Shown: in pieces, positions 31,201 to 34,200 of the stretch | How positions within the stretch are numbered: the stretch's first letter is position 1 | Layout: every line of letters begins with the position of its first letter | DNA from: a virus | Lineage: Duplodnaviria; Heunggongvirae; Uroviricota; Caudoviricetes | Reading direction: 5' to 3' (one strand) | Length of the DNA stretch: 64,000 bases | IMG/VR virus record: IMGVR_UViG_2684622670_000009 | Span: 1-64,000 of that record | Position numbers: made by a program

Positions 31201-34200
31201 AGTTTTTGAGGTCGATTTGCTGAAGTCTCAGGAAATAAACCTGGATTATATCCTTGGACTGATTTTCGAACACAACAGACAAAATAAAGGCAAGGGCGAA
31301 ATGATCGAAGAGGTCAAACGCTTAATTCGTTCAAGCCTAGGGAACCGTGCTAAAGAGGGCCTGGTGGTCGATTTTATTCAGCAAACGAACCTGGATGATT
31401 TACCGGACAAAGCCAGCATCATTGACGCATTCTTTACGTTTGCTCAACGCGAACAGCAACGTGAAGCAGAAGCATTGATAAAAGAAGAAAATCTCAATGA
31501 AGAGGCAGCAAAACGCTATATTCGCACGTCTTTAAAACGCGAATATGCCACCGAAAATGGCACAGAATTAAACGAAACATTACCAAAACTTAGTCCGTTA
31601 AATCCGCAATATAAAACGAAAAAACAGGCAGTTTTCCAGAAAATCGTCTCGTTTATTGAGAAGTTTAAAGGCGTAGGCGGAAAAATATAGCCCAATTCGT
31701 GTTTTTCTTGCGGGTTCTTAATTAAACCCGCAAGAGACCGTGGGGTTCCAAATGGCTAATATACTCCCCTTACCCATGCGCGACAATGCTGCCAAAAGTG
31801 ATAGAAAACAGCCAGAAATAGATCGCGGCCATAATGATTTTGAATGCCGTGTTCATATCTTCAGCTCCTGTGATTGATTGGATACATGCCGCGCCCCTTG
31901 CGGCATGTTTTTATTTTTACCTTCTCTGCTTTAAATATCAAGATTTATTAGAGCAATTATTGCTGATAGAGAAGCGCATTTTCATACTCCCTGACCATTA
32001 ACGTAAGTACGCCGTGACTCCTGAAAACACGCGCCACTTCAATCTTATCTTCCAGCGCGAACGCAATTTTACTTAGACCAATTTTCTTCAGGAGATCAAT
32101 CTTTGCTGGACCGTCATTTCTGTCATCGGTGGCAGGACGCATAGATAGCAAAGGCTCAGCCCCATTTGTTACGTGCTTACGCAACCAGGCTCGTGTTTTA
32201 TCCCTGGCTATCTCACAGCGCCCGGTTACAAACCAGAGGGTGTAAATGCCGGACAACTGGCGCACCATATCAATAACTGGAGTGATGGGGGCATCAGTGT
32301 CACAGGCAAGGTTAAACTCGTTCCAGTGCTCTGTTAATGCACCTTTACCTGGTGGTGGAAGTAAATGCAGTCTGTCTTCAGTTGCCTCTGATATTGTTCC
32401 ATCAATATCGACTATGACGATATACGGACGTTCCTGGTGTGCGTGTTTATTGAAAATACTCAAATGCCCTCCTCATTGGACGAAAAAAATGCTGGTGGGC
32501 GCACTCCACCAGCATTAAAAGTGACACTGTAACTATCAGCGAACGTAAATAGTGCCGCCGTTCTCTTTTTCCCATGCATCGCTACGTGCATAGCAAACAT
32601 CGAGAAGTCTTCTTGCCGCAGTTTCTTCTAAACCCAATTCAACAACCAACTGCTCATGACGGCGGGTAACTACATCAAATAGGCTATGCAGCCCTTTAGT
32701 TGCCAGATCATCAATGAATTCCGGTTCGAAGGGCAGCTCTGCATCTGCCAACATAACTTCTTGCGCCCACTCAACTCGACGGACCAGTTCTGGACGGCGG
32801 CTTTCCATCTCTTTACAAATCATTTCATGGAAGAACTCTACCCAACCTTCCGGCTGGAACTCGCGGAAAATGGCCAACGGCTGGAAGTTTGGCATCAACC
32901 ATTCGTTGATTCGGATATCAATGGCATAGCCCATGTCGCAGCAGAACTGATAAGCAAAGTCCAGCTTAGAAACGATATAAGGACGTTCGTTATTAAACTC
33001 TTTAGGAGATGAGATCCCATAAGCCAGGAGGCGTGGGAAGAAGGAGATTTGCCCTAACGTCGGATGAGGTTTGCTTGCAGGGAAACGGCGCTCAGTAATG
33101 CCATACATTTCTTTCTTGAGCGTCGCAAATTTGGCATTTTCATTAACCAGCTCAGTAACCTCTGTTTTTTATTAGCAAATGCCACCCGTGCCTCGCTTGC
33201 ATCTTTAATAGCCTTTTTGAGCTGTTGGTTAAGGTCGGCGACCTGCTTACGCAGTTCCTGTCGCTCGCTTTTAGCTTTGTTATAGCGTTTCTCAAGGTTA
33301 AAAGGATCAAGTTTCATGATCTCTTTATATTGAGATTTTAGCGTTGAAATCTGTGAGTTCCGCAGTTCAACCATCGCGGTCATTTCATTGAGTTTTGTTT
33401 CCAGCTCAATGCTTATACGTTCGGCATTATCAGCACGCTGGTTGGCGTCATGCGTCGCATCGTCAATTGCGTCCTGTTGCTGGCGTTTCAAATGTTCAAT
33501 TTGCAGCTGAAGCTCTTCAATTTCTTTACCCTTCAGACCGAGGTCCAGCTGCATATTTTCAGCTGCATCTACCAGGTCATTATGGCTATCAGCCTCTGCG
33601 TTATAAACATCAATAAGCTGTGCGTGAAGCATCTCTGCTGACTGAACCGCATTATCAAAAAAACGCGCTGTGAGGTCATCACAACTAACTCGGCGTTGCG
33701 CGGCCCGGATGTTCTGGATAATGGCCGGGATACCGGCATTCAGGACGTCAGGGATAGATACATTTTCGATTGATTGGTTTTGTGCTGAAGTGTTCATTTC
33801 AAAGTTCCGTATTAGCTTGTACTTCGGTCATTTTTCCTAAGTATGAAGGAGGAAGGACTACGCAATTTGTATCCAGCCCCTCACCCAGAGCAGCCTGTAA
33901 AATTCTGGCTAAGGAGAGTCTCTTGTTGCGATACCGGGTGATGACATGCCTGATATCGCCGGACGGCGTAACAAAGGCGATCAGCCAGTAGTGATATTTC
34001 CGTCGGAATGGCCACATAGTGCACCTTATGGATTGCTCTAATAAAAAACGTGATGAGTGTACATCACGTTTTAAAAATATGGAATTATTAGAGCAATATT
34101 ATTCTGATTCTTGCTCAAAAAACGCGCTAATGAGAGGAAGCCAATCCTCTGACACTTCACGCGGTCGCGGTTTGCCGTGGAAGAAGATTATTCGGCAGTC

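Follow-up and report, generated by a model that had tools for sequence, protein, structure and literature searches.

The locus considered here lies between the phosphatase gene pap and the restriction gene hsdR in a 64,000-nucleotide stretch of the IMG/VR virus record IMGVR_UViG_2684622670_000009 (positions 1 to 64,000; hereafter the window), and the question it raises is whether a 28-codon open reading frame (ORF) on the minus strand is a gene, and if so, what controls it and what its product might do. When the region is compared by BLAST with annotated phages and plasmids, the window is seen to be a P1-like (Punavirus) phage-plasmid, and the P1 plus strand corresponds to the minus strand of the window. 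P1 is a classical model phage, and phage-plasmids built on its backbone form a very common family in E. coli and Salmonella. We consider the locus to be a C1-repressed early promoter module of P1-type phage-plasmids together with its first cistron, the latter being a real, largely unannotated micro-gene for a one-helix protein, and we put the probability of this reading at about 0.75. In this text, the term micro-gene refers to the 28-codon ORF and its homologues, regardless of their length.

The features of the locus are collected in Table 1. The operator, promoter, leader and ORF align with positions 84293-84487 of P1, and 500 bases around the micro-gene match P1, P7, SJ46, RCS47 and plasmids of the PLSDB collection at 93-98% (BLAST); the micro-gene segment is present in 873-874 of the 72,556 PLSDB plasmids. 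On the minus strand, the gene order is pap (the final gene of the pmgR-pmgS-pap operon), the micro-gene module, the convergent hsdR-hsdS-hsdM, doc, pdcB, lpa, pacA and pacB. An ORF for one hydrophobic helix, ending before an inverted repeat, had been noticed in the original prediction and is present as described. That prediction missed that the micro-gene is the first cistron of the pmgT operon, and did not identify the operator and promoter with those already known from P1.

Table 1. Coordinates of the micro-gene, its expression module and neighbouring features in the window
Feature	Coordinates	Strand	Remarks
Micro-gene, 28 codons, single transmembrane helix, MNTAFKIIMAAIYFWLFSITFGSIVAHG	31856..31770	-	Stop included; grand average of hydropathy (GRAVY) 1.29
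Shine-Dalgarno (SD) AGGAG	31869..31865	-	8 nt before the ATG at 31856
CA-rich motif CCAATCAATCA	31881..31871	-	Directly 5' of the SD; exact in JK004
Stem-loop at predicted transcript 5' end, ACATGCCGC-loop-GCGGCATGT	31908..31884	-	Fold about -14 to -16 kcal/mol
Sigma-70 promoter (P1pmgT equivalent)	31941..31913	-	-35 TTGATA 31941..31936; 17-nt spacer; -10 AAAAAT 31918..31913
C1 operator, equivalent to P1 Op88/OpmgT, ATTGCTCTAATAAATCT	31957..31941	-	One mismatch to consensus ATTGCTCTAATAAATTT
pap, HAD-type polynucleotide phosphatase, upstream neighbour	31957..32463	-	Pfam PF25109; 92-98% identical to annotated Pap of P1 and relatives
Junction/spacer	31769..31712		P1 homology ends 4-6 nt after the stop, TAAGGGG / AGTATATT, ~31765
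Inverted repeat, 12 bp	31745..31712		Between ORF and hsdR stop (31690); no U-tract on either strand
Type IC hsd cassette	25613..31690	+	hsdM 25613-27175, hsdS 27172-28452, hsdR 28574-31690
c1, cognate repressor gene	17696..18547	+	Product 280/283 residues identical to P1 C1 (99%)

Conservation of the reading frame

Homologous ORFs occur at the same position and in the same frame in five lineages that are diverged from P1, namely Cronobacter phage JK004, Salmonella phage-plasmids, and three lineages from Logan assemblies; with the P1 lineage this makes six. The homologues of the five diverged lineages have 46-53 codons, and the first 24 codons align across all six lineages without gaps. In JK004, whose Pap is 72% identical, the region 3' of pap contains an operator of sequence ATTGCTCTAATAAATAT, a hairpin whose stem differs, an exact CCAATCAATCA, GGAG and ATG, and the homologue itself has 53 codons (MHLIFKLAITAFYAWMLTVVITSF...). 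The Salmonella phage-plasmids are without pap, and here the same layout is found after pmgS, with a 46-codon ORF (MHTVFKLAMAAFYIWIFTIVFTGI...). Profile searches added forms of 48 and 53 residues on contigs of ~90 kb. The order of the module is the same in all six lineages: operator, TTGATT, -10, stem-loop, (C)CAATCA(ATCA), GGAG and ATG.

Over the first 24 codons the lineages are 50-60% identical at the nucleotide level, and four residues (M1, K6, A11 and W15) are invariant. The similarity is specific to one frame. BLOSUM62 scores are 40-81 in the ORF frame, as opposed to -24 to 30 in the other two, and the ORF frame is free of stops across the lineages, with stops accumulating in frame 2. Differences at the first, second and third codon positions number 9/4/15, 10/2/14 and 13/3/17 in three comparisons, i.e., the second position is spared. 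Hydropathy averaged over residues 7-24 stays at 1.8-2.1 in all lineages, and the tail that follows the helix varies from 4 residues in P1 up to 29. The sparing of second codon positions, the constant hydropathy and the frame-specific similarity together amount to protein-level selection for a transmembrane helix. Judged from these alignments, the 28-codon ORF is a real protein-coding gene, and its frame-specific conservation across diverged lineages upholds the proposal that it is a genuine micro-gene whose product is one hydrophobic helix.

Within the P1 lineage, the divergence is too small to tell a gene from a conserved leader. The sample consists of ~250 copies (252 pooled) from IMG/VR, metagenomes and reference records, which fall into 112 haplotypes and 24 ORF alleles; a scan of genome contigs with Pap as anchor yielded just 2 loci. 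None of the ~250 ORF copies has a stop or frameshift, an outcome that has a chance expectation of ~60-70% given how few mutations there are. The pap gene shows the normal pattern in the same sample, with 28/15/71 variants over the three codon positions. The third positions of the ORF are less polymorphic than those of pap (5/28 vs 71/168, P = 0.02, based on 67-112 haplotypes), and hardly any position varies between the SD and codon 9. This pattern might stem from a recent sweep along with the cassettes, or from a constraint that acts on the initiation region at the RNA level.

The C1-controlled expression module

The C1 operator and the overlapping minus-strand promoter, both of which had been proposed earlier, are present (Table 1). 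The operator 17-mer is identical in sequence and position to Op88/OpmgT of P1, where the P1 record annotates a C1 protein_bind site. The GenBank wording for this site is 'monovalent C1-controlled operator OpmgT, former Op88', and the notes on Op88 point to entries M25414 and X98146. In the window, as in P1, the operator begins on the final base of the pap stop codon; its own last base is also the first base of the -35 hexamer, which it abuts. The promoter (TTGATA-17-AAAAAT) scores 9/12 in a consensus scan, and P1 carries the annotated, predicted promoters P1pmgT and P2pmgT at the equivalent place; the TAAAAAT given in the original prediction denotes this same site, with the spacer counted as 16 nt. 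Operator-like sites with three or fewer mismatches number 17 in the window, compared with 0.27 expected. The site thus matches a C1-controlled operator of P1, it overlaps a sigma-70 promoter, and a cognate C1 is encoded in the window, and as far as the sequence can tell, the proposed repressor control would be genuine. The operator is kept within 1-2 mismatches in nearly all of the ~250 P1-lineage copies, and in all six lineages, where a TTGATT -35 lies directly 3' of it. Many singleton variants occur in the operator and promoter of P1-lineage copies. Three elements are old knowledge, namely the operator, the promoter and the hsd-P1 junction; the micro-gene family itself, and the conserved module for its expression, appear to be undescribed.

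The 5' hairpin, the CCAATCAATCA motif and the strong SD named in the original prediction were all found on the minus strand. In all six lineages the stem-loop begins 3-8 nt after the -10, a location that coincides with the implied 5' end of the mRNA. Variants within the P1 lineage fall in the loop or yield G-U pairs, and the five other lineages have, at the same place, a hairpin with unrelated stem sequence (the stems are ACATGCCGC, as in the window, GGCCGC, AGGCCAC, TTGGCAGTCAC and TGGCGGTCGC). For five lineages that align in register, 6 of the 11 stem pairs are changed on both sides, and 89% of the hairpin cells pair, as compared with 17-48% for controls with a slid 3' partner. These compensatory changes indicate that the hairpin is selected as a structure. 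In E. coli, 5'-terminal stem-loops stabilise mRNA, and this is probably the role of the hairpin here.

Read on the plus strand, the hairpin of the P1 lineage is followed by TTTTATTTTT, and the arrangement reads as an intrinsic terminator facing hsdR (31884-31918). Its T-run is the A-rich -10 region of PpmgT, and the six-lineage comparison found no conservation of the arrangement outside the P1 lineage. The plus-strand terminator is a lineage-specific by-product, and not a conserved function; in elements that carry hsd, it could end read-through from hsdR.

The window has three exact copies of CCAATCAATCA; all lie on its minus strand, and each is located directly before a purine-rich, SD-like run. 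Besides the micro-gene copy (31871-31881; CAGGAG), one is found at the P1 gene cra, upstream of cre (16790-16800; GAGGTG), and one between c8 and the ref operator (15091-15101; run AGAAGGAG), the last without an obvious start codon. In the Salmonella lineage the sequence at this place is TCAATCAATCA, the Logan lineages have just one CCAATCA unit, and three loci are missing one CAAT unit (4 nt). The simplest reading is that CCAATCAATCA may be a shared translation-initiation element, possibly an unstructured CA-rich one.

An SD of the quality seen here precedes only 3 of the 673 ATG-initiated ORFs of 20-60 codons in the window (0.45%). The SD and ATG are invariant in the ~250 copies, in which indels (of 2 and 4 nt) are seen only in the leader, and GGAG is kept at 5-8 nt from the ATG in all lineages. 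Rfam searches of the region gave sub-threshold hits only (the best was GcvB, with 17 bits against a gathering score of 42), and leader plus ORF fold no better than shuffled sequences (z = 0.16 for the window; -1.8 for P1). A structured noncoding RNA or riboswitch was rejected on the basis of these scores. A transcription-attenuation leader peptide was rejected as well: there are no alternative terminator/antiterminator structures and no sense-strand terminator, and the fold is that of shuffles.

The micro-gene is not annotated in the reference records of P1 and P7. It is called with 44 codons, as 'membrane protein' or 'hypothetical', in SJ46 (J46_0098), phi456 (Orf75) and by PGAP (WP_024191728.1), and this version starts at an ATG within the hairpin. 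The 44-codon start cannot be right because it is broken by leader indels: it is out of frame in the window due to a 2-nt insertion in the loop, and the CAAT deletion shifts it in three loci. It is also absent from the other lineages. In JK004, gene_94 (locus L267, 3575-3736) has a wrong start, the annotated internal ATG giving 38 amino acids. The annotations to be corrected are accordingly the 44-codon start in SJ46, phi456 and PGAP, the start of gene_94 in JK004, and the missing gene in P1 and P7. No relative of the micro-gene was found in Pfam, PHROGs, NCBIfam, PADLOC or the PDB, and an exhaustive hidden Markov model search of 1.84 billion cluster representatives returned nothing beyond the micro-gene's own family.

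Proposed function and competing explanations

In the prophage-plasmid state, C1 would bind the 17-bp operator abutting the -35 and keep the promoter off, as is known for Op88 of P1. When C1 is inactivated, either by induction or on fresh infection, sigma-70 polymerase is predicted to start at ~31906-31908. The 5' stem-loop would then probably shield the mRNA from 5'-end-dependent decay, and CCAATCAATCA and AGGAG, judging from their conservation, would load ribosomes onto the ATG. The composition of the 28-residue product suggests that it inserts in the inner membrane as a single helix. Since the helix is under selection, the peptide presumably acts at the membrane, on a host or phage component there, early in lytic development.

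The micro-gene is followed closely by another gene in the ancestral arrangement. The distance from its stop to the start of pmgT (upf86.8 in P7) is 10 nt in P1, P7 and SJ46, where TAAGGGGG around the stop is the SD of pmgT; the distance to the next gene is 5 nt in the Salmonella lineage, and the micro-gene overlaps the gene after it by ATGA or TGATG in JK004 and the Logan lineages. A stop 0-10 nt from the next start implies that, in P1 and the five other lineages, the micro-gene stands at the head of an early accessory operon of variable content, into which it probably couples translation, as expected of a coupled first cistron. In the window this partner is lost: the operon body from pmgT to humD has been replaced, and the micro-gene is left as a monocistronic stump whose transcript would converge on hsdR. 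The genes after the micro-gene thus differ, being pmgT, a winged-helix protein of 97-112 amino acids, or none (about one third of copies), and because the helix is conserved despite these differing or absent neighbours, we favour a membrane function of its own over a purely coupling leader.

The gene that follows the micro-gene in the non-P1 lineages is conserved, encodes ~100 amino acids (97-112), and has a weak MarR/TrmB-type winged-helix signal (3733-4047 in locus L267 of JK004, 2647-2918 in L268, and 2659-2973 in L271). The protein could be an early regulator.

Known systems that invite comparison include AcrZ, MgtS, PmrR and MgrB, which are small single-pass proteins of the enterobacterial inner membrane that modulate larger membrane proteins. 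The micro-gene product resembles them in its size (28-53 amino acids), its single hydrophobic helix, its few invariant residues and its variable tail. It has no sequence relationship to any of them, and differs in being encoded by a phage and controlled by a phage repressor. A more specific version of our reading is that the module is a fixed expression platform at the left edge of the main cargo hot-spot of P1-like phage-plasmids, and that the peptide belongs to the core early effectors, with a target in the host membrane; we offer this tentatively, and hold it to be possible rather than likely. If it is true, the effector could serve, for example, in host take-over, exclusion or membrane priming, and would have escaped notice in one of the most thoroughly studied phages by lying below ORF-calling cut-offs. 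With this conserved early gene, which the reference annotation lacks, and its conserved expression module, the C1 regulon gains a testable player.

Several observations weigh against the reading of the locus as a C1-repressed module with a genuine one-helix gene. Within the P1 lineage, the ORF has 14 non-synonymous and 9-10 synonymous variants, distributed 7:8:8 over the codon positions; omega is ~0.5 and not significant (P ~0.09-0.22), and the changes include radical ones in the helix region (L16Q, G22D, G23D and G28R). The micro-gene is dispensable in some contexts: the insertion sequence IS1 cuts it at codon 3 in ~274 plasmid records, and in two IMG/VR loci its last third has been replaced. 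The positive-inside rule gives opposite topologies for the 28- and 53-residue forms. We found neither published ribosome profiling of P1 nor a proteomic report of the product, and the transcription start, and hence the 5'-terminal position of the hairpin, would follow from promoter geometry only.

The original prediction likened the product to small toxic or lysis-modulating peptides. On this view, loss of C1 would release a membrane toxin or lysis-timing modulator that depolarises or permeabilises the inner membrane. The peptide is indeed small, very hydrophobic (GRAVY 1.29) and composed of a single helix, and it would be made only once the lytic programme starts; its promoter can be tightly repressed, its mRNA would be stabilised and its SD is strong. 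In these respects it recalls TisB and DinQ, which are LexA-controlled type I toxins and likewise combine a short hydrophobic peptide with a tightly repressed promoter and expression on a stress or induction signal. However, the micro-gene has no antisense RNA gene, no long structured inhibitory 5' untranslated region (UTR) and no homology to these toxins, and there is no match to a toxin, holin or defence family in Pfam, PHROGs, NCBIfam, PADLOC or the PDB. Of the sequence features of a type I toxin-antitoxin system, only the small hydrophobic ORF is found. No antisense promoter was detected: there is no plus-strand promoter in 31500-32100, and the opposite-strand hairpin is not conserved. The hydrophilic tail varies from 4 to 29 residues. 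Moreover, the promoter belongs to an early, C1-controlled accessory operon rather than to a late, Lpa-dependent lysis cassette of the kind that would hold a holin or antiholin, and no lysis genes are adjacent. The likeness finds no specific support in these observations, and we regard a toxin or lysis modulator as unlikely. An Ibs/Sib-like antisense small RNA on the plus strand was also considered and rejected, there being no plus-strand promoter, and the T-run being the -10 region, which is missing in other lineages.

Alternatively, translation of the ORF might matter only for opening the mRNA and passing ribosomes on to the downstream cassette gene, with a peptide that has no function. ORF-11 of the class 1 integron attI is a leader ORF of this type, which couples translation into variable cassettes, and the micro-gene resembles it in being short, fixed and promoter-proximal, in bordering a cassette hot-spot, and in having its stop beside the next start. 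The short stop-to-start distance in every lineage, the next SD lying within or overlapping the ORF end, the fixed leader with highly variable downstream genes, and the P1-lineage polymorphism that is near neutral at the amino-acid level all fit this account. Translation alone is insufficient, on the other hand, to explain a helix and four residues that are conserved, with second positions spared, at 25-58% identity, or an intact gene in the approximately one third of copies (hsd-type) that have no downstream partner. Unlike ORF-11, the micro-gene encodes a peptide conserved as a transmembrane helix, and it is associated with neither an integrase nor a site-specific recombination site, its breakpoints being scattered over ~30 nt. 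On balance we consider a functionless leader peptide rather improbable. Going one step further, the leader would be noncoding and the ORF no more than a frame that arose by chance where a 5' UTR or recombination border is conserved, as might be supposed from its absence from the P1 and P7 records, and from third positions that, among P1-lineage copies, show no excess of variants and vary less than the third positions of pap. Yet the frame, start context and helix are kept across six lineages at ~50% nucleotide identity, frame 2 gains stops and neither alternative frame has comparable amino-acid similarity, and the transcript has ordinary structure (z = 0.16) and no significant Rfam hit, which makes a noncoding leader highly improbable. 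It is also conceivable that hsd-carrying elements co-opted the module, and that PpmgT transcription antisense into hsdR damps restriction on induction. The hsd cassette is always convergent, with an identical junction; no sense-strand terminator follows the ORF, the repeat at 31745..31712 having no U-tract; and the 5' hairpin with its T-run (31884-31918) reads as a strong plus-strand terminator, at which hsdR read-through would end. Against this, the arrangement is a secondary consequence of cassette replacement, the hsd genes of IncF copies show no visible loss where IS1 deletes the promoter, and an untranslated antisense RNA would be prone to Rho termination. We think such co-option quite doubtful, and retain the one-helix micro-gene under C1 control as the preferred reading.

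The hsd junction and the cargo hot-spot

The point where P1 homology ends (Table 1) was established from alignments of the window with P1, P7, SJ46 and phi456. Phage phi456 and vB_EcoM-673R5 have the same configuration, with a junction 4-6 nt past the stop and a convergent hsdR; in vB_EcoM-673R5, phd-doc is on the far side of the hsd cassette. The cassette is of type IC, since its HsdR is essentially that of EcoR124I/II, with which it aligns over the full length (PDB 2w00, 2292 bits). Lying in inverted orientation, it replaces the P1 genes pmgT-pmgU-pmgV-upfMNO-hot-lxr-humD, up to phd-doc. The window and the Op88/PpmgT region of P1 share the operator 17-mer, its overlap with the pap stop, the -35 arrangement, the leader, the ORF and the cognate C1, but in P1 the promoter drives pmgT-pmgU-pmgV, in place of which the window has the inverted cassette.

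The EcoR124I/II, EcoDXXI and EcoprrI hsd loci, which are of type IC, share with the window the HsdR type and a flank downstream of hsdR that consists of Op88 plus the ORF. In the R124/IncF version this flank is an IS1-truncated remnant from codon 3, whereas the window has the full operator and ORF in an otherwise complete phage-plasmid. On IncF and other large plasmids (~274 PLSDB records, including pIP1206, L005, and p1FK563, L006), the IS1 end falls at codon 3; these copies lose the start, SD, promoter and operator, and retain a 3' remnant of P1 DNA next to hsdR (~3950-4085 in L005/L006). The hsd-P1 junction was reportedly described by Tyndall et al. (1997, Mol Microbiol 23:729), which PMC12707154 lists as ref 364. 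According to the P1 GenBank record, the stretch is 96-98% identical to the DNA downstream of the EcoDXXI hsd locus and of R124/3 hsdR.

In ~255 copies, the ORF is followed by a pmgT-type start in 170 and by a convergent hsdR in 81, with two further copies breaking in codon 19/20 and two at the stop. Different cargo cassettes have their left breakpoints scattered over ~30 nt where the micro-gene ends at its 3' side. In two loci (L054 and L073) the break comes after codon 19, the ORF gains a foreign tail, and the gene of a ~600-amino-acid protein is next; in a third (L075) the break is at the stop. The interval from pap to lxr/humD is known to vary, and has been described as 'RD-5', in which a type I restriction-modification (R-M) system substitutes for pmg genes (PMC6906374), and as 'region 8' of P1-like phage-plasmids (PMC9603915). 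The micro-gene marks the exact left border for this swapping of cargo, which comprises restriction systems and possibly resistance genes.

The micro-gene was originally placed downstream of the R-M cluster, which is correct as geometry; the ORF is convergent with hsdR, though, and belongs to the pap side of the junction. On the comparative evidence, its link to the cluster is secondary, an accident of cassette replacement, because the peptide also occurs where hsd is missing from this site, namely in P1 and five other lineages. For the same reason, a functional tie between the peptide and the type IC system was rejected; the analogy considered was Stp of T4, a 26-amino-acid peptide that inhibits EcoprrI (PMC12707154).

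Two minor observations concern transcription across the junction. The repeat at 31712-31745 that follows hsdR has no U-tract, and the hsdR mRNA may run antisense through the whole micro-gene; conversely, PpmgT transcripts may run antisense into hsdR. Elsewhere in the window, a 371-amino-acid ORF (18580-19695, minus strand) lies between c1 and pacB, where P1 has no gene, and an antirepressor-like insertion between c1 and pacB has been mentioned for RCS47-type elements (PMC6906374).

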